A stretch of DNA of 64,000 nucleotides from a virus. This document shows, in pieces, positions 2,555-63,306 of this stretch (within the stretch, counting starts at the first letter, position 1; the number at the start of each line of letters is the position of its first letter). The stretch lies in IMG/VR virus record IMGVR_UViG_3300044641_002725. The stretch is one strand, 5' to 3'. The notes under the pieces were generated by a model. It was not told the DNA's origin. It did no database searches and worked only from the letters and a program-made list of their open reading frames with translations. Both the position numbers and the translations under genes were made by a program.

Positions 2555-3016
2555 ATGAAATTAAATTTATTTGGTGATTCATACGATGAACCAACTAAAA
2601 AGTGTTCCAAGTGCAAACAAGATTTGCAATTACATATGTTTGGTAAAGCAAGTGGCGGAAACTATCTTAGGGGTGAATGTAAAAAATGCAATAGAGAAAT
2701 TTACAAGTCTAGGGAAAAAGCCAAATCTACTGCCTCAGCAGTACCAACCAATCATATTTGTCCTATTTGCCTCAGAAAAGAAGATGCTGTAAAAAATAGA
2801 GGTGGCAAAAAATCAGGTACATGGTGTTGTGACCATGACCACGTTTCAGAAAAATTTAGAGGATGGTTATGCCATGATTGTAATCGAGGCATAGGTAATT
2901 TAGGTGAAGATATAGCTAGATTGCAAAGATCAATTGAGTATTTAAGTGATGCAAAAAAACATCAAGAGACTTCTAAGTTAACAGAATTTTTTATTTCAGA
3001 CCCTGTAAGTGGTTGA
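2555..3016 (+). CDS. Endonuclease VII-family HNH nuclease
   Basis: CPIC...DHDH...FRGWLCHDCNRGIG plus N-terminal CxxC zinc finger. Confidence 0.85.
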   Translation: MKLNLFGDSYDEPTKKCSKCKQDLQLHMFGKASGGNYLRGECKKCNREIYKSREKAKSTASAVPTNHICPICLRKEDAVKNRGGKKSGTWCCDHDHVSEKFRGWLCHDCNRGIGNLGEDIARLQRSIEYLSDAKKHQETSKLTEFFISDPVSG

Positions 3017-6109: not shown

Positions 6110-7288
6110 ATGACTACCAAAGCTGAAAAGATTTTATTTGTCACCGAAGCCGCAAAACGTTTTGGTGAAGTTGTGACCCACGATCAACTGGTAACTCTAT
6201 CAGAAGAAACTGGAATGAAACGTCAAGTGTGGCTAGAGGGCAAACAATACCGAGTTGCACGTGGCAAGTACCAATTGCCTCTTCAAGAATTCAACATTAA
6301 CATGGCTGGTCTCGCATTAGTCAAATCTAAACCTATGACAATTAGTGAACCGACTGTAACGCCTGTTACAAAAGCAATTGCAAAAATGTCATCCGTTGCA
6401 CGTATGCAAGAGGGTGCAATTATTCCTAAAGTGAATTCTTTGTACGTGCCTTTCGGTTTCTTTGATAACATGAAACGCATTGTTGCATCAAAGAAATTTT
6501 ATCCAGTATTCGTTTCTGGTCTCTCTGGTAACGGCAAGACTTTCATGGTTGAGCAAGCCTGTGCCCAATTGAAGACAGAATGCCTCCGTGTAAACATTTC
6601 ACCAGAGACTGATGAAGATGATTTGATTGGTGGTTTCCGTTTGATTGACGGAGAAACAAAATGGTTTGACGGTCCAGTTGTTCAAGCAATGAAGTCTGGT
6701 GCTGTTTTGATTCTTGATGAAATTGATCGTGGTTCAAATAAACTAATGTGTCTGCAAGGTGTACTTGAAGGCAAAGGTTTGTTCGTTAAGAAGACTGGTG
6801 AATTCGTTGAGCCAGTTACGGGTTTCAACGTTATCGCTACCGCAAACACTAAAGGTAAGGGTGATGAATCTGGTCGCTACATGGCAGCCACAATTCTTGA
6901 TGATGCGTTTCTCGAACGTTTCCCAATTACAGTTGAGCAAGAATATCCTGATGTTAAAATCGAAACCAAGATTTTGACTAAGTTGTTTGCAAGTCTTGAC
7001 ATTGATGACAAAGCATTTGCAGAAAATCTTGTGAAGTGGGCTGATATCATTCGTAAGACTTTCGAAGAAGGTGCTATCGATGAATTGATTTCCACTCGCC
7101 GTCTGTCTCACATTGCCGAAGCATACACCATCTTCAACGATAAGATGGAAGCAATCAAGTACTGTATCAACCGTTTCGATGGTGAAACAAAGACTGCATT
7201 CCTTGACCTCTACAGCAAGATTGATGCTGGTATCGATCCGACTGCCGAAGTGAAGTCCGAAACAAATACGGATGAAGTTCCGTTCTAA
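6110..7288 (+). CDS. MoxR/CobS-like AAA+ ATPase
   Basis: Walker A GLSGNGKT, Walker B LILDEID, ATANT, DAFLERF. Confidence 0.9.
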   Translation: MTTKAEKILFVTEAAKRFGEVVTHDQLVTLSEETGMKRQVWLEGKQYRVARGKYQLPLQEFNINMAGLALVKSKPMTISEPTVTPVTKAIAKMSSVARMQEGAIIPKVNSLYVPFGFFDNMKRIVASKKFYPVFVSGLSGNGKTFMVEQACAQLKTECLRVNISPETDEDDLIGGFRLIDGETKWFDGPVVQAMKSGAVLILDEIDRGSNKLMCLQGVLEGKGLFVKKTGEFVEPVTGFNVIATANTKGKGDESGRYMAATILDDAFLERFPITVEQEYPDVKIETKILTKLFASLDIDDKAFAENLVKWADIIRKTFEEGAIDELISTRRLSHIAEAYTIFNDKMEAIKYCINRFDGETKTAFLDLYSKIDAGIDPTAEVKSETNTDEVPF

Positions 7289-21044: not shown

Positions 21045-22271
21045 ATGTTTAAATTTAAAGAATATCTTATTGAGAAGAAAAACACTCACATGGAACATGC
21101 GGAAGACGATGTTCTGAATGGTGGTGTTGAAGGAACTAGAGATAGCATAAACGCACTCAGAGCGGTGCGTGATATGCTTGCTGGACATTCCAAAAACAAA
21201 GTTGACATTTCAGTCAAGTGGGATGGTGCGCCAGCAGTCTTTGCAGGACAAGACCCAACAGACGGCAAATTCTTTGTTGCGAAGAAGGGTGTCTTCAATA
21301 AAAATCCCAAAGTATACAAAACTCCAGCAGAAGTTGATGCGGACACATCTGGTGATTTAGCAGACAAACTCAAAGCATGTTTGATGTATTTGCCTAAGAT
21401 CAACATCAAAGGCGTTATTCAAGGCGACTTGCTATTCACACAAGCAGACTTGAAGACAGAAACAATCGAAGGTGAATCATACGTCACGTTTCACCCAAAC
21501 ACCCTAGTCTATGCAGTACCGTCAGAAAGTGATCTTGCTAGAGAGATAAAACGTGCTAAAATTGGAATTGTCTGGCACACATTTTACGAAGGCGATACAT
21601 TCGAAACAATGTCAGCAGTCTTCGGCAAAGACATTCTAAGTACACTCACAAAGACACCAAACGTTTGGATGACAAGTGCAGTCTATCAAGACGTATCGGG
21701 CAAAGCTACGTTGACACAATCAGAGACAGACCAAGTCACAGCAATTCTATCTGAAGCAGGAAAGATATTCAGAAAGCTAGATGCACCAACACTAAACTAC
21801 ATCAATACAGACGAAGACTTGATTGAAAGAATCAAGACATTCAACAATTCAAAAGTACGTCAGCAGTTGAAAATCACTAACGTCAAGACACACGTTGCCG
21901 AGTTGATTCAATACATAGAAGATTACTACGAGAAACAAGCTGAAGGCAAAGGTGAACGTGGTCGTGCTACTCAGATGTTGAAGAAAAGCAAAGTGCTTAA
22001 ATTCTTCTCACCAAAAAACAAATCACACTTAGAAGATATTTTCACAATGATGAATCTCTTAGCAGAAGCTAAGTTAATTTTGATTAAGAAGATGGATGAA
22101 GTCAAGACGCTGAATACTTTCTTGTTGACAAAGAAAGGTTACGAAGTGACTGGTGTTGAGGGTTATGTTGCAATTGACAAGATCAAAGGCAATGCAGTCA
22201 AGTTAGTTGACAGAATGCAATTCAGCTACGCAAACTTCTCACCAGATATTATCAAAGGCTGGCAGAGATAA
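21045..22271 (+). CDS. DUF6267-type protein, RNA-ligase-like covalent nucleotidyltransferase fold
   Basis: KNTHMEH; VKWDG (motif I), IQGDL, EGYV, VKLVDR. Confidence 0.65.
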   Translation: MFKFKEYLIEKKNTHMEHAEDDVLNGGVEGTRDSINALRAVRDMLAGHSKNKVDISVKWDGAPAVFAGQDPTDGKFFVAKKGVFNKNPKVYKTPAEVDADTSGDLADKLKACLMYLPKINIKGVIQGDLLFTQADLKTETIEGESYVTFHPNTLVYAVPSESDLAREIKRAKIGIVWHTFYEGDTFETMSAVFGKDILSTLTKTPNVWMTSAVYQDVSGKATLTQSETDQVTAILSEAGKIFRKLDAPTLNYINTDEDLIERIKTFNNSKVRQQLKITNVKTHVAELIQYIEDYYEKQAEGKGERGRATQMLKKSKVLKFFSPKNKSHLEDIFTMMNLLAEAKLILIKKMDEVKTLNTFLLTKKGYEVTGVEGYVAIDKIKGNAVKLVDRMQFSYANFSPDIIKGWQR

Positions 22272-22337
22272 CGTATAGTCTAATCTGAAACCAGACACAT
22301 TTATGTATACATTCGGTAACTGTATTTAACGGCAAAT

Positions 22338-22721
22338 ATGTCATATTCTCAAAAAGTTTTAGATCACTATGAAAATCCCAGGAATGTCGGATCTTTTGAC
22401 AAGACTGATGCTGATATTGGCACTGGTATTGTTGGCGCACCTGCTTGCGGTGATGTTATGAAACTTCAAATTAAAGTAGAAGAAGGAATAATTATAGATG
22501 CAAAATTCAAAACGTATGGATGTGGAAGTGCAATTGCAAGTTCCAGTCTTGTCACAGAGTGGGTCAAGGGCAGAACACTTGACGAAGCAGGAAAGATATC
22601 TAATTCACAAATTGCTGAAGAACTTGCCTTACCACCGGTTAAAATTCATTGTTCAATACTTGCAGAAGATGCTATAAAGGCGGCTATAAATGATTACAAT
22701 AACAGATGTTGCAAAGTCTAA
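22338..22721 (+). CDS. iscU: Fe-S cluster scaffold IscU
   Basis: YSQKVLDHYENPRNVG, APACGDVM, GCGSAIASSS, LPPVKIHCS. Confidence 0.97.
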   Translation: MSYSQKVLDHYENPRNVGSFDKTDADIGTGIVGAPACGDVMKLQIKVEEGIIIDAKFKTYGCGSAIASSSLVTEWVKGRTLDEAGKISNSQIAEELALPPVKIHCSILAEDAIKAAINDYNNRCCKV

Positions 22722-23013
22722 AATCATAGACTTGTTACGAGAAGAAAACAATCCAAACATTTCACTACGAACGTTTGTTGTGGGTGGTGGATGTTCTGGA
22801 TTTAATTACGGATTTACAATGGACGAAGTTAAGAATGAAGATGATTTTGAATTTCCTCTAGATGAATTCAGAGTCTTAGTTGATGCAATGAGTATGCAAT
22901 ATTTACAAGATGCAAACATAGACTACAAAGATGAGTTTATGCGAAAAGAATTTGTGATTACTAATCCAAATGCAAAACATACTTGCGGTTGTGGCAGTAG
23001 TTTTAGTGTATAA
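22690..23013 (+). CDS. erpA: A-type Fe-S carrier (ErpA/IscA)
   Basis: GGGCSGFNYGF...NPNAKHTCGCGSSF. Confidence 0.9.
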   Translation: MITITDVAKSKIIDLLREENNPNISLRTFVVGGGCSGFNYGFTMDEVKNEDDFEFPLDEFRVLVDAMSMQYLQDANIDYKDEFMRKEFVITNPNAKHTCGCGSSFSV

Positions 23014-23035
23014 TAATTAAAAGACGGAGAGTAAT

Positions 23036-24322
23036 ATGGCAGGTTTAAGCATTTCAGAACTTAAAAAACGTCCAGGCAGAATAGAGACTTTTGCAACAAA
23101 ATTAAAACAGGGATCAGCATTTGCCATGGCACCATCTGGTAGTATTATTGCCGAGACTGTTATCATAAATGATAAAGTTTATGATAAGAACGACACCGCA
23201 AAAATAATTAAAGCAATAGAAATGGCTAAAAAAATAGTGCTTGTTTCTAAAAAAGGCGATTCTGCGCCTATAGGTAAACTATTGAAATCTAGCGAATTTG
23301 GAGGTAGTGGCGGCTCTCCAGGAGAAACCGCTAAAGGAAATCGTGGTGATATGGCAGAGGCTATATTTGCAGCCGCAATTACGGCTAGATTTATGACTAA
23401 AAATCAAAATGTTACCCCAATTCATATTCATGCATTATTGGATAAACTCCGCACAGATAAGATGCAACAAACGCACGAATACGAAGGATTAAATATGAAT
23501 CCAAAAATTATAGATTCTGTCACATTAAAAGTGGGTTTAGCTATTTCAAATTTAGTTGCCCTTCAAGATAGAACAATTCGTGCATCATTATCGGATGTTG
23601 TAGCATCTGCAATAAAATATGCAAATGCTCCTATTGTAGTGAAGTGGGCTAAGATGTTATATGAAAATAACCAAAAAAACGCTATTGAAATTATTGCGGA
23701 TGGTATTGGCGATCAGACGGGAACAAAAGTTGACGTTAGATTAAGAATTGATAATATTGCTACAAATATTAATGTGTCGCTAAAAGCTGGAGACGTAAAG
23801 CAGTTTGGTCAAGTCAGCGGCGCTGGTTTTGACAAGCAAGAATATCTTTGGAAAACACTTGCGGGACTAAATGTCTCAGCAGTAGAAGCCGAGTACGTAA
23901 AACTTTTATCGCAAAAAAAAGCATTAAAATCCATTGAAACTTCATATGGTGAGGCGGCTGATAAATTTAATGCTGAAATTAAAACTTCTGAAAAGAATGC
24001 GTATAAAAAACTAGCATCTGGTATTAAGTTCTTTGCAACAATGGATGAAGAGAACGTTACATTAGTTCAACTTAACAAAGAAGAGGCTAAAATATATACA
24101 TTTGATGTATTATTTACTGCACTTCAAGCAAATAAAACAAAAATAACAGCTAAATTAAATACGTCAAAATCTTATCCTGAAGTTAATTTTGAGAACGATA
24201 CAGGTGAAATTCTATTGACTGTCAGAGCAAAAACAGAAAATAAGCCAAGTGGAGAACAATACATAAGAAATTATGTAGAGAAGGGTCCGTTGATGGGTAA
24301 GTTAGTTGCGACTTACGCATAA
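23036..24322 (+). CDS. hypothetical protein, possible restriction-endonuclease-like fold
   Basis: GDMAE...KVDV...NVSLK motif; 428 aa; GGAG RBS. Confidence 0.5.
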   Translation: MAGLSISELKKRPGRIETFATKLKQGSAFAMAPSGSIIAETVIINDKVYDKNDTAKIIKAIEMAKKIVLVSKKGDSAPIGKLLKSSEFGGSGGSPGETAKGNRGDMAEAIFAAAITARFMTKNQNVTPIHIHALLDKLRTDKMQQTHEYEGLNMNPKIIDSVTLKVGLAISNLVALQDRTIRASLSDVVASAIKYANAPIVVKWAKMLYENNQKNAIEIIADGIGDQTGTKVDVRLRIDNIATNINVSLKAGDVKQFGQVSGAGFDKQEYLWKTLAGLNVSAVEAEYVKLLSQKKALKSIETSYGEAADKFNAEIKTSEKNAYKKLASGIKFFATMDEENVTLVQLNKEEAKIYTFDVLFTALQANKTKITAKLNTSKSYPEVNFENDTGEILLTVRAKTENKPSGEQYIRNYVEKGPLMGKLVATYA

Positions 24323-24359
24323 GTTGCAACTGCTAAGGATATATGAAATTCATATAAAT

Positions 24360-24367
24360 TATAAATA
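24360..24367 (+). promoter_or_regulatory. T4-type late promoter
   Basis: TATAAATA. Confidence 0.75.
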
Positions 24368-24430
24368 AACTATAACGCAGTTAGGCTACGGCAAACCTGT
24401 ACAGATAAGTCTACGGAAAACTCTAAAAAC

Positions 24431-27037
24431 ATGAAAACATTCAAGGCTTCTTTAACAGAAGCAACAAAATCGCAAGTTGTAGTCTCATTTGGGCGCATGA
24501 ACCCAATGACAAATGGCCACGAAAAACTTGCCGACAAAATCAAAGCAGAAGCAAAAAAGCGTAACGCTGATGCTAAACTGTATCTATCGCACAGCACAAA
24601 TCCAAAAAAAGATCCACTAGACTTTAAGACTAAAGTTAAGTTTGCAAAGAAAGCATTTGGACCAATGGTTCAAAATTCTGTTGCAAGAACAATCATTGAA
24701 GTCGCAAAAGAACTTAGTGGCAAGTATGATGATTTAATTGTGGTTGTTGGTAGCGATAGAATTCCAGAGTTTAAGACTTTACTCAATAAGTACAATGGAA
24801 AAGATTATACTTTTAAAACTATTGAAGTTGTTTCAGCAGGCGAACGTGATCCAGATGCAGAGGGTGTTTCTGGTATGTCAGGTTCTAAGATGCGTGGATT
24901 TGTCGCATCCGACGACTTCAACAGTTTTAAGCAAGGTGTGCCATCAAAATTATCTGACTCAGATGCCAAAGCATTGTTTGATGCAGTTAAAAGGGGAATG
25001 AATTTGAAAGAAGAACTAGAACAACAAGACGAAGCAGTTCTTGGCTATGCACAGCGTAGACAAAGAGCGCAACAGTTTAGACGAATTCAAAAACGTCTAA
25101 TACGAGCAAGAGCATTTCAAGCAAAACGCTTTGCTGATCCTAAGAGATTAAAAAGAAGAGCCGCTAAAATGGCATATCAATTCTTCAGAGGGCGTCTTTC
25201 TGGTGGTAAGAACTATGCGGGCTTAAGTGCTGGAGAAAAAATCACAGTAGACACAAGATTGCAGAAGATGTTACCTGCAATTAAGAAGTTTGCAGTACGT
25301 TTAGTACCAGCCGCTAGAAGCAAAGAAGTTATGCGTAGACAAAGCATGATGATGAGAAAAGAAGATTTGAATCATATCTTTGCAGAATTCATTGTTGAGA
25401 AGCCAACTGTACCACAAGACAGAGATGTTAAAGACAGAGAGGGCACACAGCCTAAAGCCTATTATGCTGGCGTAAGCAAAGACGATAAAGACGCAAGAGC
25501 GGCACACTTTGAAAGAAATACTCCTAAGTCAGATTCTGACAAGAGTGCATATGCAGACGCACCTGGCGATAAAGAAGCTAGAGAAAAAGGTATGAAACAA
25601 TCAAAGCATACACTCAAATTCAAACAGATGTATGGTGAAGCAGTAAAAACACCAGAAGACAGAAAAGAAATTTCTAGACTAGACCAATTGGTTCGTTTGG
25701 GATTAGCAGACACAAAATCTCTTACAGTTATTAAGCGTTCAGTTGAGAAACTAAAATCTGGTGACATGTTAAATCCAGCAGAGCGTAATGTCACAAATGA
25801 TTTGTTGACAACGCTACTTGATATGGTAACATCAAGTGATGCATTGTTCAGAATGACTAAGACTCAGCTACAGAAAGAGTCTATTGATGAAGCCGCATAC
25901 AAAGGCAACATTGGTGCAATGGAAATGATGAAGTTCTTCCAAGTTGCAACGCCACAAGAAAAAGAAAAACTCAAAAAACTTATTGCAGATAAGAATCAAT
26001 CAGCCGCTTGGAAAATGATTCAAGACGTTACTGGTATGAAACTCATGGGCGAAGAAGATGAGTATGATTACGAAGAGACTGATGGTCTTTCAATGGCACA
26101 AATCGAAGTGTCTAACATGATTCAAGACGCAGAAGAATTACTTGAAATGATGGATCAACTGGATGAAGAGCCAGATGCTTGGGTATTATCTAAGATTACT
26201 AAAGCGGCTGACTACATTTCAACAGTACGTGATTACTTAGAATTCGAAGATGACTTTGATTACGAAGGTGACGAAGACGAAGAAGAAGACGATGGTGAAT
26301 TCTCTGGTGCAGAGTTGGATATGTACGCAAGCGAAATGGGACCAGATGAGTTTGGTGATGGGTATGAAGACTTCAGACCGATTCTAGAAGAAATTGAAGG
26401 CTTGAAAAAGAAATCAGAAAAATCAGGTATTGCTTATGGTATTCTCAAAGCAGTTTACGACAGAGGCATGGCCGCATGGAAAACTGGACATAGACCAGGA
26501 ACAACTGCACAGCAATGGGCATTCGCTAGAGTGAACTCATTTATTACAAAAGGCTCTGGCACGTGGGGAAAAGCTGATAGCGACTTAGCCGCTAAAGTTA
26601 GAAGCAACGAAGAGTTTTCTAAATTTGCTGAAGCGTTAGAGTACGGAACAGATGCATTGCGTAAGAAGTATGCAAAAGATACACCAGGACAATCTGAAGA
26701 AACATGTTGTGATGATTGTGAAGATGAAATCACAGAAGATGTTGATTGGGAAAAAATTGTTAACGAAGCAGAATATCAAGGTAAGTCTGTTAAGTTAAAT
26801 GATCCATTTAGAACGCCTGATGGCCCTAAGAAGTTTGGTGTCTACACTATGGGTCCAAATGGTAACGTAGTTATTGTTCGTTTCGGTGATCCCAATATGG
26901 AAATCAAGCGTGATGATCCAGACCGTAGAGCAAGTTTCAGAGCAAGACATGGTTGTGATGATGACCCAGGACCAAAGTACAAAGCAAAATACTGGTCGTG
27001 TTATCAATGGCGTGCAGGCGCTAAAGTAGATAGTTAA
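24431..27037 (+). CDS. multidomain protein: N-terminal HIGH-family (cytidylyl/nucleotidyl)transferase plus many appended small domains; probable internal head protein
   Basis: FGRMNPMTNGHEKL, VVGSDR, SAGERDPD, MSGSKMR; N-terminal MKTFKASLTE; repeated hydrophobic-x-E sites. Confidence 0.75.
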   Translation: MKTFKASLTEATKSQVVVSFGRMNPMTNGHEKLADKIKAEAKKRNADAKLYLSHSTNPKKDPLDFKTKVKFAKKAFGPMVQNSVARTIIEVAKELSGKYDDLIVVVGSDRIPEFKTLLNKYNGKDYTFKTIEVVSAGERDPDAEGVSGMSGSKMRGFVASDDFNSFKQGVPSKLSDSDAKALFDAVKRGMNLKEELEQQDEAVLGYAQRRQRAQQFRRIQKRLIRARAFQAKRFADPKRLKRRAAKMAYQFFRGRLSGGKNYAGLSAGEKITVDTRLQKMLPAIKKFAVRLVPAARSKEVMRRQSMMMRKEDLNHIFAEFIVEKPTVPQDRDVKDREGTQPKAYYAGVSKDDKDARAAHFERNTPKSDSDKSAYADAPGDKEAREKGMKQSKHTLKFKQMYGEAVKTPEDRKEISRLDQLVRLGLADTKSLTVIKRSVEKLKSGDMLNPAERNVTNDLLTTLLDMVTSSDALFRMTKTQLQKESIDEAAYKGNIGAMEMMKFFQVATPQEKEKLKKLIADKNQSAAWKMIQDVTGMKLMGEEDEYDYEETDGLSMAQIEVSNMIQDAEELLEMMDQLDEEPDAWVLSKITKAADYISTVRDYLEFEDDFDYEGDEDEEEDDGEFSGAELDMYASEMGPDEFGDGYEDFRPILEEIEGLKKKSEKSGIAYGILKAVYDRGMAAWKTGHRPGTTAQQWAFARVNSFITKGSGTWGKADSDLAAKVRSNEEFSKFAEALEYGTDALRKKYAKDTPGQSEETCCDDCEDEITEDVDWEKIVNEAEYQGKSVKLNDPFRTPDGPKKFGVYTMGPNGNVVIVRFGDPNMEIKRDDPDRRASFRARHGCDDDPGPKYKAKYWSCYQWRAGAKVDS

Positions 27038-60316: not shown

Positions 60317-60549
60317 GTAAAATGGCAGAATTGGCGATGGAGATTGAACAGTTGTATCTTCAAGGGTACAATGAATTCACAATTTCAACAATGCTTAATA
60401 TACCAGTGGAATTGGTAGACAATTTTGTTGCAAGTTTTATGGATGTAGAGTATAATGAAAACATGGACGGAGACTTTGATTCCGCTATGGCTTCAGCAGG
60501 AATGGGAACAGACGAGGATTACGGAAGTTATGGAGAGCCTGAATTTTAA
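60313..60549 (+). CDS. acidic hypothetical protein
   Basis: MDGDFDSAMASAGMGTDEDYG. Confidence 0.7.
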   Translation: MSKMAELAMEIEQLYLQGYNEFTISTMLNIPVELVDNFVASFMDVEYNENMDGDFDSAMASAGMGTDEDYGSYGEPEF

Positions 60550-60673
60550 ATTGTCGAAAACAAAACCACGTAACGTGGTAGCGAAGGACTTGCGTAGCCC
60601 TAAGTATCGTATGCGTGTGGTTGAAGACAAACGTAAGAGAGAACCTAAGCATAAGGAATCGTATGTATATTGA
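60530..60673 (+). CDS. small basic protein, ArfA-like motif
   Basis: RNVVAKDLRSPKYRMRVVEDKRK..PKHK. Confidence 0.55.
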   Translation: MESLNFKLSKTKPRNVVAKDLRSPKYRMRVVEDKRKREPKHKESYVY

Positions 60674-60965
60674 TGGTATGGGTCCGAGACAATCAATGGC
60701 TGTTGAAATTTTAGATACAGTTCGATTTGGTGGGCTAGATAAAATCAAAGGTGCAAACGGGTATTCTAAAAAAAGACTTGACAAAGGTGATGCTTATGTG
60801 ATACCATTTGGACTTAGTAAAAAATTATTTGGTGCAGTAGTAATTTCTGCTCCGAAAAGACTATATATTACATACAAGATAAACAATGTGGCTGAAACTG
60901 TGCGAATGAAGTATGCATGGGAAGTGAAGCGATTCTTAGTGAATAAATTCATTCAGAATATGTAA
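60663..60965 (+). CDS. hypothetical protein
   Basis: basic ~100-aa ORF. Confidence 0.55.
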   Translation: MYIDGMGPRQSMAVEILDTVRFGGLDKIKGANGYSKKRLDKGDAYVIPFGLSKKLFGAVVISAPKRLYITYKINNVAETVRMKYAWEVKRFLVNKFIQNM

Positions 60966-60971
60966 AGAACG

Positions 60972-61169
60972 TTTCGGGTTAGTCTCCGAATACTGTGACC
61001 CACAGGATGAGAAGTAGTGTGACAGCTACGGGTGGTAGTCTTTGAACCGAAAGGCCGCTGGCAATGCGAGAACGGAATCTGTCGGGAAGCGGGTGGAAGG
61101 TACATATGAGGGGTATGATAGCGTCATATCTTTCTGTACTATAATTACCGCCGAGATTCGCAGAGCATT
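60972..61169 (+). ncRNA. putative structured non-coding RNA, class unknown
   Basis: intergenic, GC-rich relative to flanks, nested stems, CC-GAAA-GG tetraloop. Confidence 0.6.
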
Positions 61170-61194
61170 TTATGAATTAAGAAAAGGTTAGACA

Positions 61195-61470
61195 ATGAAT
61201 GAAGTTGAAAAAGAAGTTTTACTAATTGCACAAGAAGAATGTGCCGAAGTGACACAGGCAATCAGTAAAGTTTTTAGGTTTGGTTTAGATGGTGAACACA
61301 ATGGTGCATCTAATCGTGAACGATTGACAGAAGAAGTTGGTGATTTATTTTGTATGATTCAGTTGATGATTGAAACAGGTATCATCAATATTGATGAAGT
61401 AGATAAAGCATCCGCAAACAAGAAAGCAAAACTCCAGAAATGGTCTAATATTTTTAACGAAGAAAAGTAA
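61195..61470 (+). CDS. MazG-like NTP pyrophosphohydrolase
   Basis: EECAEV...LTEEVGDL. Confidence 0.85.
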   Translation: MNEVEKEVLLIAQEECAEVTQAISKVFRFGLDGEHNGASNRERLTEEVGDLFCMIQLMIETGIINIDEVDKASANKKAKLQKWSNIFNEEK

Positions 61471-61471
61471 A

Positions 61472-61588
61472 ATGAATTCAGTATCGAAACCCTCAACAAG
61501 AAATTACATGCCATGTACGTGGCAGAATATTTCTCGCATTGAGAAATCAGATCGCCATACGCCACTGATGGGGGCTTGTTATACCTGA
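61472..61588 (+). CDS. putative attenuator leader peptide (38 aa)
   Basis: MNSVSKPSTRNYMPCTWQNISRIEKSDRHTPLMGACYT; ATG 1 nt after MazG stop; 3' end overlaps antiterminator arm. Confidence 0.5.
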   Translation: MNSVSKPSTRNYMPCTWQNISRIEKSDRHTPLMGACYT

Positions 61589-61663
61589 GGACCAAAAAAG
61601 TCCAAAAGAAAATATAAAGACAAGCCCCCTAGAGAGACAGCAAACTCTAGGGGGTTTTTCTTT
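61491..61663 (+). promoter_or_regulatory. transcription attenuator (protector / antiterminator / terminator)
   Basis: 61570-61579 GGGGGCTTGT exactly complementary to 61620-61629 ACAAGCCCCC; 61491-61500 pairs with 61575-61590. Confidence 0.65.
61625..61663 (+). terminator. intrinsic terminator
   Basis: CCCCCTAGAG-N10-CTCTAGGGGG-TTTTTCTTT. Confidence 0.9.
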
Positions 61664-61664
61664 G

Positions 61665-61726
61665 TGTTGTATACAAACAACATCTATGAAAATAGTTGTT
61701 GACAGTCTTTTTGATTGTGTTATACT
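61665..61726 (+). promoter_or_regulatory. tRNA-array promoter with TGTTG-N8-CAACA palindrome
   Basis: TTGACA 61699, 16-bp spacer, TATACT 61721. Confidence 0.85.
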
Positions 61727-61732
61727 TTGTAT

Positions 61733-61792: not shown

Positions 61793-61866
61793 TGGGGATT
61801 AGTGTAATGGTAGCACAACGGATTTTGATTCCGTTGGCACAAGTTCGATTCTTGTATCCCCTGCCA
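61793..61866 (+). tRNA. tRNA-Gln(TTG)
   Basis: cloverleaf, ACGGA-TT-TTG-AT-TCCGT, CCA. Confidence 0.92.
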
Positions 61867-61869
61867 AAT

Positions 61870-61944
61870 GGTGACATAGCACAGCGGTAGTGCAATTGCT
61901 TCATACGCAATCGGTCGTTGGTTCAAATCCAACTGTCACCACCA
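61870..61944 (+). tRNA. tRNA-Met(CAT), elongator (Ile2 not excluded)
   Basis: ATTGC-TT-CAT-AC-GCAAT, CCA. Confidence 0.88.
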
Positions 61945-61948
61945 ATTT

Positions 61949-62023
61949 AGGGGTATAACTTAACGGCTAAAGTAGTAGGCTTTTAACCTATTAATCCGAG
62001 TTCGATTCTCGGTACCCCTACCA
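61949..62023 (+). tRNA. tRNA-Lys(TTT)
   Basis: GTAGG-CT-TTT-AA-CCTAT, CCA. Confidence 0.93.
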
Positions 62024-62118
62024 TATAAAAACACTCTAAACTGGACGCAGGTTCTGTGAAGTACGCCCTTGGATTGATCGCCAAGAAAGTATGGAGAATG
62101 AGAGTGTTTCTATATGGT
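62020..62118 (+). ncRNA. long inverted-repeat spacer element between tRNA-Lys and tRNA-His
   Basis: ACCATATA-A-AAACACTCT pairs AGAGTGTTT-C-TATATGGT (17/18 bp). Confidence 0.55.
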
Positions 62119-62190
62119 GTTGTTAGTTTAGTGGTAAAACTACGGATTGTGATTCCGTCATCAAGAGTTCAATTCTCTTACGACACCCCA
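62116..62190 (+). tRNA. tRNA-His(GTG)
   Basis: G-1/C73, ACGGA-TT-GTG-AT-TCCGT, CCA. Confidence 0.93.
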
Positions 62191-62199
62191 AAGATAATT

Positions 62200-62274
62200 G
62201 CCTTGTTAACTCAGCGGTAGAGTGTCTCCCTTACAAGGAGAAGGTCGGCAGTTCGATCCTGTCACAAGGTACCA
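62200..62274 (+). tRNA. tRNA-Val(TAC)
   Basis: TCTCC-CT-TAC-AA-GGAGA, CCA. Confidence 0.93.
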
Positions 62275-62280
62275 AGATAT

Positions 62281-62354
62281 TCCCGGATAGTTAAATGGTA
62301 TAACGTTCGCTTGATAAGCGATTATCGAAAGTTCAATTCTTTCTCTGGGAACCA
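62281..62354 (+). tRNA. tRNA-Ile(GAT)
   Basis: TCGC-TT-GAT-AA-GCGA, CCA. Confidence 0.9.
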
Positions 62355-62357
62355 AAT

Positions 62358-62434
62358 GCCCTCTTACTCCAATTGGTAGAGAGAGCGGTCTTAGAAGCCG
62401 TAAAGTCTCAGTTCGAATCTGAGAGAGGGCACCA
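62358..62434 (+). tRNA. tRNA-Leu(TAG), short variable loop
   Basis: GCGGT-CT-TAG-AA-GCCGT, CCA. Confidence 0.88.
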
Positions 62435-62444
62435 AAGTTTTTAT

Positions 62445-62519
62445 GCGCCTTTAGTAAAATGAATATTACACAACGCTACGAACGTTGAAGTGGGAGTTTG
62501 ATTCTCTCAGGGCGCACCA
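62445..62519 (+). tRNA. tRNA-Arg(ACG), atypical D/T loops
   Basis: CAACG-CT-ACG-AA-CGTTG; T loop TTTGATT; CCA. Confidence 0.85.
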
Positions 62520-62525
62520 AGTTAT

Positions 62526-62615
62526 GGAAGTGTGGTCGAGTCTGGTTTATGGCAACAGTCTTGAAAACTGTCGAACAGAAATGTTCCGTGAGTTCGAATC
62601 TCACCGCTTCCGCCA
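62526..62615 (+). tRNA. tRNA-Ser(TGA)
   Basis: ACAGT-CT-TGA-AA-ACTGT, long variable arm, GCCA. Confidence 0.94.
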
Positions 62616-62622
62616 AAATTAT

Positions 62623-62710
62623 AGAGAGTTGGGTGAGTGGTTAAACCAGCAGTTTGCTAAACTGTCATTGCGAAAGCGGTGCATGAGTTCGAATCTCATA
62701 CTCTCTGCCA
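62623..62710 (+). tRNA. tRNA-Ser(GCT)
   Basis: GCAGT-TT-GCT-AA-ACTGT, long variable arm, GCCA. Confidence 0.94.
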
Positions 62711-62771
62711 GTGATAAAAAACAACAACTACCGAAATAGTTGTTGACAAAAAATGTTTAGAGTGTTATACT
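62709..62771 (+). promoter_or_regulatory. internal tRNA-array promoter (half palindrome CAACA retained)
   Basis: AAATAGTTG-TTGACA 62743, 17-bp spacer, TATACT 62766. Confidence 0.8.
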
Positions 62772-62793
62772 CTATTCATAGATTAAAAAGTAT

Positions 62794-62868
62794 GCACGAT
62801 TCGTCTATCGGTTAGGACTCAGGGTTTTCATCCCTGCAAGAGGAGTTCGATTCTCCTATCGTGTACCA
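62794..62868 (+). tRNA. tRNA-Glu(TTC)
   Basis: CAGGG-TT-TTC-AT-CCCTG, CCA. Confidence 0.92.
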
Positions 62869-62869
62869 T

Positions 62870-62954
62870 GGAGATGCCGCCGTAATGGTATGGCAGGAGA
62901 CTGTAAATCTTCCGACTTATGTCACAACAGGTTCGATCCCTGTCATCTCCACCA
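62870..62954 (+). tRNA. tRNA-Tyr(GTA)
   Basis: GGAGA-CT-GTA-AA-TCTTC, variable arm, CCA. Confidence 0.92.
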
Positions 62955-62960
62955 AATTTA

Positions 62961-63035
62961 GGTGCGTTCGTATAGAGGTTATTACTGCGGATTGTCTATC
63001 CGCTTACGGGAGTTCGATTCTCCCACGCATCGCCA
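62961..63035 (+). tRNA. tRNA-Asp(GTC)
   Basis: GCGGA-TT-GTC-TA-TCCGC, GCCA. Confidence 0.92.
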
Positions 63036-63060
63036 AATTTTATTATACATAATAGTATGT

Positions 63061-63138
63061 CGCACGGTGGCAGAGAGGTCAAATGCAACGGTCTGCAAAA
63101 CCGTAAAGTCGTGAGTTCAAATCTCACCCGTGCGTCCA
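63061..63138 (+). tRNA. tRNA-Cys(GCA)
   Basis: ACGGT-CT-GCA-AA-ACCGT, U73-CCA. Confidence 0.92.
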
Positions 63139-63148
63139 GTTTTTCAAT

Positions 63149-63224
63149 AGCGGGTTACGTCAGTGGTCAGACTATTAGGCTCATAACCTAAAGGACGGAG
63201 GTTCGAATCCTTCACCCGCAACCA
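63149..63224 (+). tRNA. tRNA-fMet(CAT), initiator-type
   Basis: 1:72 mismatch (A:A), TTAGG-CT-CAT-AA-CCTAA, ACCA. Confidence 0.87.
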
Positions 63225-63230
63225 TTTTAT

Positions 63231-63306
63231 TCCTCAGTAGCACAGCGGTAGTTGCACTTGACTGTTAATCAAGGTGTCCGTGGTTCGATCCCACGCTGAG
63301 GAGCCA
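63231..63306 (+). tRNA. tRNA-Asn(GTT)
   Basis: CTTGA-CT-GTT-AA-TCAAG, GCCA. Confidence 0.93.

Follow-up and report, generated by a model that had tools for sequence, protein, structure and literature searches.

The window analysed here, a stretch of 64,000 nt from the IMG/VR virus record IMGVR_UViG_3300044641_002725, carries among its large genes those for a family B DNA polymerase, a DnaB-like helicase and a ribonucleotide reductase, a combination that identifies the replication module of a large lake phage. All DNA runs that contain this stretch are lake-water metagenomes, and no deposited phage is closely related to the window. Its plus strand holds, in this order, a small ORF, a structured RNA element and a MazG-domain gene (mazG), and the tRNA array begins about 600 nt beyond the RNA (Table 1). 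A strong terminator-like hairpin located 3′ of mazG parts the RNA-mazG unit from the tRNA operon; it also draws weak His_leader/IhtA matches in Rfam.

Table 1. Features of the RNA element and of its surroundings in the window.
Feature	Position	Strand	Description and support
Whole element, structured RNA gene of ~205 nt	60966 to ~61172	+	CM R1 match 60966-61176, 225 bits
P1 hairpin (loop L1, 60978-85)	60973-77 with 60986-90	+	5/5 pairs with two-sided changes; 91.6% paired
P2, CUGUG-ACC-CRCAG	60993-97 with 61001-05	+	100% pairable, never covaries
P3 hairpin	61015-18 with 61025-28	+	3/4 pairs with two-sided changes; 97.1% paired
P4 hairpin, GUCU/AGGC, 10-nt loop UURAACCNAA	61038-41 with 61052-55	+	4/4 pairs covary; 96.1% paired
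P5 hairpin, CGY-UGGCAAU-RCG, 7-nt loop	61056-58 with 61066-68	+	C61058:G61066 covaries
P6, closing the 3′ domain	61075-80 with 61154-59, plus C61073:G61163	+	6/6 pairs covary; 90.7% paired
P6b, GCGG/CCGC	61089-92 with 61148-51	+	100% paired
Conserved internal loop, 5′ strand G-UGGA-R	61093-61098, facing AUAAUUA 61141-47	+	UGGA invariant in 95 sequences
P7 hairpin base (element 61099..61140)	61099-104 with 61135-40	+	5/6 basal pairs with two-sided changes; 97.7% paired
L1:L3 loop-loop kiss	GUC 60982-84 with GAC 61021-23	+	3/3 pairs covary; 97.5% paired
Predicted pseudoknot of L2 with the post-P3 junction	ACC 60998-61000 with GGU 61031-33	+	ACCC/GGGU versus ACAC/GUGU exchange
Upstream ORF, 116 aa, no Pfam family, stop codon abutting the RNA	60615..60965	+	
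Downstream MazG-domain gene, 91 aa, own ribosome-binding site	61195..61470	+	Pfam PF03819, E = 1.2e-5
Strong GC-rich terminator-like hairpin 3′ of mazG	~61616-61663		U-runs on both strands
Near-consensus promoter of the tRNA array, TTGACA-16-TATACT	61699-61726		
Array of 16 tRNA genes, own promoter, past the terminator hairpin	61793..63306	+	

A preliminary description of this DNA had placed an ORF-free, GC-rich RNA of about 200 nt at 60972-61169. The element is real, and its limits were refined to those in Table 1. The 5′ limit in the window falls on the base that directly follows the TAA of the upstream ORF, and other phages have this limit right behind the CCA of an upstream tRNA; the 3′ limit is set by abutting downstream tRNAs (2-8 nt past AGCA) and also by the exact absence of the element in a related genome, IMGVR_UViG_3300027708_000025. 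The GC content amounts to 0.46-0.475, compared with 0.33-0.38 in the flanks, which agrees with the enrichment described before. The block is not strictly free of ORFs, as mechanical ones of 49 aa (plus strand) and 50 aa (minus strand) are present, but stops break them in most homologues: at least one stop lies in the frame of the window ORF in 63 of 95 homologues on the plus strand and in 70 of 95 on the minus strand. Moreover, the lengths of the homologues scatter over all three residues modulo 3. A small protein gene was rejected because neither frame is kept open among the 95 homologues and their lengths fall in all three classes. ARAGORN found no tRNA or tmRNA in 60966-61172 and 16 tRNAs downstream, as expected from the earlier statement that the block is neither. 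The fold of the single sequence is not significant against shuffles (z = -1.41 on the plus strand and -0.25 on the minus strand), so the hairpins first proposed cannot be judged from this sequence alone, and the case for the element is built on comparative data.

We fetched IMG/VR loci first via the two flanking proteins (the upstream ORF and MazG) and found the element in them. The most conserved 17-mer, TACTGTGACCCRCAGGA, was the seed for a pattern scan, which matched at least 119 IMG/VR viral contigs; in the 119 matched contigs listed, nhmmer detected homologues in 113, nearly all of full length, with three cut by the contig end. After removal of duplicates, at least 94 distinct copies were obtained, plus 11 in a variant clade. 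The nhmmer and CM searches also recover the element in the MazG-seeded loci, and a CM search of the 69 MazG/ORF loci that had no nhmmer match yielded no further copies. A variant scan with ...GADCC... gave two chance matches only. Among 50,697 cultured or deposited phage records, blastn (word 11) with the element found no match. In 596 Gb of GTDB, comprising 185,579 bacterial and archaeal species-representative genomes, the 17-mer occurs at 26 sites, no more than expected by chance; none of these sites extends past the seed and none is a homologue. By this limited test the family appears confined to phages. It is, on comparative grounds, an uncatalogued RNA family carried by at least 113 contigs of uncultured freshwater or lake phages.

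The homologues fold alike, and the fold covaries. Alignment A1 consists of 95 sequences and was partly seeded with the P2 motif. On it RNAalifold gave 37 pairs, 26 of them with compensatory double changes, and a mutual-information scan added two long-range features (the L1:L3 kiss, with C61073:G61163 among the scan-supported pairs). In the resulting model of 44 pairs, 96.7% of the cells of the 95 sequences are paired, versus 35-47% after a shift of the 3′ partners by 1-3 columns. Two-sided changes occur in 31 of the 44 pairs, compensatory cells number 711 as against 196 ± 14 in shuffles, and none of 500 shuffles reaches any of the measures. This gives a fold of eight helices with a covarying loop-loop kiss and a loop pseudoknot.

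Individual pairs illustrate how the helices are maintained. In the 95 copies, the P5 pair C61058:G61066 is CG in 73 and UA in 22 and unpaired in none; 61073:61163 is CG in 78 and UA in 17; and the P6b pair 61090:61150 is CG in 74, UA in 16 and AU in 5. The three kiss pairs are GC54/AU31/GU9, UA74/CG15 and CG53/UG22/GC15/UA5. P2, in which the sole change turns U-A into U-G, sits inside the invariant 17-mer UACUGUGACCCRCAGGA; as this motif had helped to collect the sequences, its invariance is in part ascertainment. Many junction bases are invariant as well, and P2 and these junctions lie beyond the reach of covariation. For the pseudoknot we scanned for copies with a base other than C at 61000: all 95 ACCC copies have GGGU and all 11 ACAC variants have GUGU, with no exception in 106 sequences, so that one evolutionary event supports the predicted pairing. 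Within the P4 loop, ACC and AA are invariant, and the P5 loop may be read as a T-loop (pattern U....A). A second GGGUGGNAG element, besides the one in the internal loop, lies at 61030-38. The distal part of P7 varies in length and sequence by lineage and is often GNRA-capped. Some members (L012, L088, L144, L183, L136, L118, L133, L121, L071 and L153; A1 columns 74-173) have an insertion between the GGGUGG junction and P4 that consists of one or two additional hairpins (about 40-70 nt, in many cases with a GNRA cap) and is a variable peripheral domain.

Most of the helices first drawn by eye reappear in this model: TTCGG/CCGAA as P1, GTAGT/GCTAC as P3, GAATCT/AGATTC as P6, GCGG/CCGC as P6b and GGTACA/TGTACT as P7 are all supported by covariation. 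CTGTG/CACAG, now P2, is conserved but never covaries, and ATATGA/TCATAT belongs to the distal part of P7 and is specific to the window's lineage. Two other proposals fell. The outer stem AATGC/GCATT is contradicted by G61066, which 22 of 95 copies replace by A with no compensating change and which pairs instead in P5 (CGC-UGGCAAU-GCG); an outer stem closing the 5′ and 3′ ends was likewise considered and dropped. The supposed CC-GAAA-GG tetraloop leaves about 30% of cells unpaired, and the helix that holds there is that of P4. Further pairings were tried and discarded. The helix ACCCGC/GCGGGU was dropped as 61090 covaries with 61150 instead, and the alternative GGUGGU/ACCGCC, pairable in 95-100%, has no compensatory change and competes with the covarying P6b. 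A K-turn at GAUGAGAAG was given up because the positions at which such a motif requires G and A show no conservation.

The genomic neighbourhood of the family is dominated by tRNA genes. They lie within 2 kb in 81 of the 94 distinct copies, and about 45 of the 94 have a tRNA gene at a distance of 0-5 nt on one side, in every case in the orientation of the RNA. Typically the upstream tRNA, with its encoded CCA, runs straight into the element, whose 3′ end lies 2-8 nt beyond an invariant AGCA, just ahead of the next tRNA. The identities of the abutting tRNAs vary (upstream Tyr, Asn, Arg and others; downstream Thr, Cys, Ala, Ile and others). No protein gene travels with the RNA in the 94 distinct copies, whose further surroundings, past the tRNAs, are heterogeneous. 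Of 77 copies collected independently of mazG, only three have that gene within 2 kb, and in two loci (L016 and L017) the RNA follows mazG at a distance of 1.6 kb. The order ORF-RNA-mazG of the window is a minority arrangement, and the element is therefore not a mazG leader. Another conserved sequence, about 110 nt in length and beginning GAAGCACATTAAAGATAGGGTCGTAGCGGTT, comes directly after the RNA in L004 (~2895-3000), L113, L132, L148 and L144; it is common to jumbo-phage arrays and to L004, one contig of the window's lineage, and it may represent a second transferred RNA.

Four phage genomes of 320-364 kb (92-100% complete) contain exactly one copy each. These copies are 87-89% identical to that of the window, whereas the DNA polymerases of the same genomes are only 31-35% identical to the window's, a mismatch suggesting that the RNA cassette has recently moved horizontally between phages that are only distantly related. 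Conversely, IMGVR_UViG_3300027708_000025, a complete genome of 150 kb, has a polymerase 90% and a MazG 97% identical to those of the window and holds no copy anywhere; at its homologous site the TAA of the ORF is followed by about 24 nt and then by the ATG of mazG. This relative retains mazG with its ribosome-binding site and 24 tRNA genes beside it, so the RNA is a discrete accessory module, and both the expression of mazG and the tRNA array are independent of it. Judged by these genomes, the RNA is horizontally mobile and dispensable.

RNA libraries from lakes contain the element in large amounts. Cover was taken as the summed depths of assembled contigs in four freshwater metatranscriptome studies (runs X15-X18), depths that sum over related phages and are blind to strand, ends and true level. 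The core of the RNA (61008-61109) reached 175-236 in X15, 6,400-7,100 in X16, 21,500-25,100 in X17 and 21-24 in X18; the corresponding values are 0, 11-16, 4-12 and 0-9 for the upstream ORF and 0-4, 0-33, 12-39 and 0 for mazG. In the RNA-library contigs of the four studies, the depth of the element is thus 100-1000 times that of the flanks. The depth drops after about 61160, and one contig ends at 61163-65, where it runs straight into Illumina adapter sequence; RNA contigs of relatives continue for more than 150 nt past the 3′ end of the element. The region 61467-61568 is without RNA-contig cover and was given no weight. Because the contig depths are summed and strandless, we read the cover as the abundance of the family only, and take the depth drop and the adapter junction as a mere hint on the 3′ end. 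There is good evidence that the family is abundantly represented in lake RNA.

That the RNA belongs to no named family, as the preliminary description had it, agrees with the database searches. At the gathering threshold, cmscan found no match to the element in Rfam 15 (4227 models), and at E ≤ 10, with 901 nt, with 221 nt and with a divergent homologue, only chance matches to lncRNA or frameshift-site models appeared, at 12-14 bits. The models covered include T-box, Cobalamin, RNase P, tmRNA, 6S, GOLLD, ROOL, Drum and raiA, and among the ribozymes HDV-like, hammerhead, twister, hatchet, pistol and glmS. A cobalamin-like resemblance (GGGAA...GGUG) was dropped for want of model support. The literature, searched by topic and by sequence strings, gave no description of this RNA.

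Several known systems nevertheless deserve comparison. First, rnaC and rnaD of phage T4 (species 1 and species 2), which are released by processing, are likewise non-tRNA stable RNAs, and their genes close a phage tRNA cluster in the orientation of the tRNAs, with only a few bases to the nearest one; co-directional embedding in a phage tRNA cluster is found in this family too, as a shared setting and not as membership. They differ in size (139 and 119 nt) and have no detectable homology, the best match of CM R1 in T4 68000-75000 with filters off being rnaD at 2.9 bits (E = 1.9). In addition, rnaC ends in a tRNA-like T-arm sequence, whereas this RNA is without a tRNA-like part. We know of no function for either T4 RNA. 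Second, HDV-like theta ribozymes are nested double pseudoknots of about 50-70 nt which, like this RNA, start immediately 3′ of a phage tRNA, but their fold is another one and the HDV-type Rfam models do not match. Third, T-box and RNase P RNAs have in common with it short motifs reminiscent of tRNA-contact elements, namely an interhelical loop with an invariant UGGN and a hairpin loop that resembles a T-loop (UG..A). On the other side, the RNA possesses no Stem I, specifier, antiterminator-terminator, P4-type core or regulated downstream gene; it gives no match to RF00230, has no terminator and precedes tRNAs or mazG, and of the T-box features only UGGA and GNUG-like motifs are present. We treat this resemblance as a lead only. 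Fourth, GOLLD (RF02032) and ROOL are phage or prophage RNAs of unknown function, often near tRNA islands, pseudoknotted and very abundant (PMC12286853). The location near tRNA islands, the complex pseudoknotted fold and the abundance are shared with the present family. GOLLD and ROOL, however, exceed 500-800 nt and form cages of 8 to 14 molecules, while this RNA has about 205 nt, and neither of their Rfam models matches the element.

The earlier proposal of a functional ncRNA is backed by conservation, covariation, cover in RNA libraries and the absent Rfam match. The explanation that we favour, with a probability of roughly 0.55, is a mobile, dispensable and trans-acting stable RNA, encoded by an independent single-copy gene, with a compact knotted fold, which represents an uncatalogued family of freshwater phages. 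In these phages it is a cassette present once per genome, most often built into the tRNA operon as a further unit. Where tRNAs abut, the gene spacing suggests that its ends would be made by the host enzymes that free tRNAs, RNase P acting on the downstream tRNA and 3′ trimming on the upstream one. In the window's lineage the RNA would be cut from the ORF-RNA-mazG message instead; as it has no tRNA flanks here and lies upstream of the array promoter and the terminator, some other nuclease would have to define its ends. The RNA would then accumulate and act in trans by binding a partner through its conserved three-dimensional core. Its accessory and transferable character seems to fit best with a tool for host takeover or counter-defence. 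More specifically, it may be a decoy or inhibitor of a host protein, either a factor or a defence nuclease, that handles tRNA-like RNAs, a sub-reading which we prefer tentatively and regard as possible.

Extra stable RNAs of phage tRNA clusters have been known for fifty years, from rnaC and rnaD of T4 to the later GOLLD and ROOL, none with a known function. The family described here is smaller and simpler than GOLLD and ROOL; its natural variants number more than 100, its fold is well constrained, and it is very highly represented in lake RNA libraries. The relative that lacks it is a natural knockout, and its copies record a recent passage between unrelated phages, all of which makes the role of such RNAs directly testable. 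A complex and conserved accessory RNA that spreads horizontally could plausibly be a new, RNA-based means of taking over the host or countering its defences.

A partner of another kind would be tRNA itself. In the manner of T-box and RNase P, the two GGGUGGNAG elements would pair with NCCA 3′ ends and the T-loop-like loops L4 and L5 would stack on the elbow, so that the RNA senses, shields or sequesters tRNAs. UGGA (61094-97) and GGGUGG (61030-35) are indeed invariant in the 95 copies, the former placed in an interhelical loop, like the bulge of the T-box antiterminator, and the RNA is co-located with CCA-encoding tRNA genes. The L5 sequence UGGCA also fits the UG..A T-loop pattern, which forms part of a tRNA-elbow docking module (PMC3664808). 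Nonetheless, the likeness was drawn by eye from short motifs, and T-box and RNase P models remain unmatched at E ≤ 10. An AG..A partner T-loop and a specifier-like variable triplet are lacking, there is no covariation with the identity of the neighbouring tRNA, and the internal pseudoknot uses part of the first GGGUGG element. We hold such docking to be doubtful, and the binding of an NCCA 3′ end by UGGA/GGGUGGNAG to be speculation. The broader proposal of a new class of catalytic or tRNA-docking RNA, acting in trans during infection and seizing the CCA end and elbow of tRNA through UGGA/GGGUGG and T-loop-like loops, has in our estimate a rather small chance of being right; if true, such a class might for example shield, sense or modify tRNAs attacked by host defences.

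Catalysis could also serve processing, with a ribozyme that cleaves itself at its ends and frees the neighbouring tRNAs, as the HDV-like theta ribozymes do, or that acts on tRNA precursors. Catalytic RNAs typically have large, knotted folds in which many unpaired bases are invariant, as is the case here, and in many phages the 5′ end lies directly past the CCA of the upstream tRNA. We nevertheless consider a ribozyme unlikely. No Rfam 15 ribozyme family was found at E ≤ 10 on 221 nt, the window has no tRNA neighbours, and the RNA contigs of relatives read more than 150 nt through the 3′ end. Besides, the close relative that has no RNA keeps its array of 24 tRNA genes, so that processing of the array does not need the RNA.

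Quite improbable is a homo-oligomer made of RNA only, comparable on a smaller scale to the ROOL and GOLLD cages, in which L1 of one molecule would pair with L3 of another. The L1:L3 covariation is compatible with it, as sequence cannot separate pairing within a molecule from pairing between molecules, and GOLLD and ROOL are likewise very abundant phage RNAs by tRNA islands (PMC12286853). The RNA is, however, 3-4 times smaller than these and has no homology to their models, and an internal kiss is sterically simple because P1 and P3 are of similar length and close in sequence.

The preliminary description had also offered a cis-regulator of the MazG/leader/tRNA unit, and a leader or riboswitch of mazG or of a mazG-tRNA unit would suit the window, where the RNA ends about 20 nt before the start of mazG, as it does in some divergent copies. 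With just three of 77 unbiased copies at mazG, most of them directly preceding a tRNA or lying between tRNA genes, and heterogeneous downstream neighbours, there is no constant position in a 5′ UTR, and L016 and L017 have the reverse order. Between the RNA and mazG we found neither a terminator-like site nor a platform to sequester the ribosome-binding site, the conserved structure ending about 25 nt before the ATG, and the relative without the RNA keeps mazG, its ribosome-binding site and the 24-tRNA array. A cis-regulatory role is essentially excluded. Finally, the weak single-sequence fold (z = -1.41) and the overlapping ORFs of 49-50 aa might suggest that the block is no functional RNA but a small protein gene, the remains of a tRNA or a set of fortuitous hairpins; this can be dismissed in view of the strong covariation, the conservation across phages with polymerases 31-35% identical, the ORFs broken in most homologues and the ARAGORN result.

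Some other features of the window were recorded. Upstream of the RNA, an ORF of 72 aa (60455-60673) has a sub-threshold match to DUF7230 (24.9 bits, with a cut-off of 27) and belongs to a run of short overlapping early-type ORFs. Directly past the last tRNA, the open-ended ORF 63323-64000 matches Peptidase_S11 (D-alanyl-D-alanine carboxypeptidase, E = 1.3e-33) and is a phage-carried gene for a cell-wall enzyme. A unit composed of an AACAAC...GTTGTT hairpin that overlaps a TTGACA -35, followed by a TATACT -10, is repeated at 61664-61730, ahead of the tRNA array, and at 62722-62775, inside the array between tRNA-Ser and tRNA-Glu; the two look like a repeated promoter, possibly with an operator. 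Within the array, the 93-nt spacer between tRNA-Lys and tRNA-His (62024-62116) has a closed multi-stem fold of -25.1 kcal/mol, far more stable than that of shuffles (z = -3.1), and may be another small RNA of the array.
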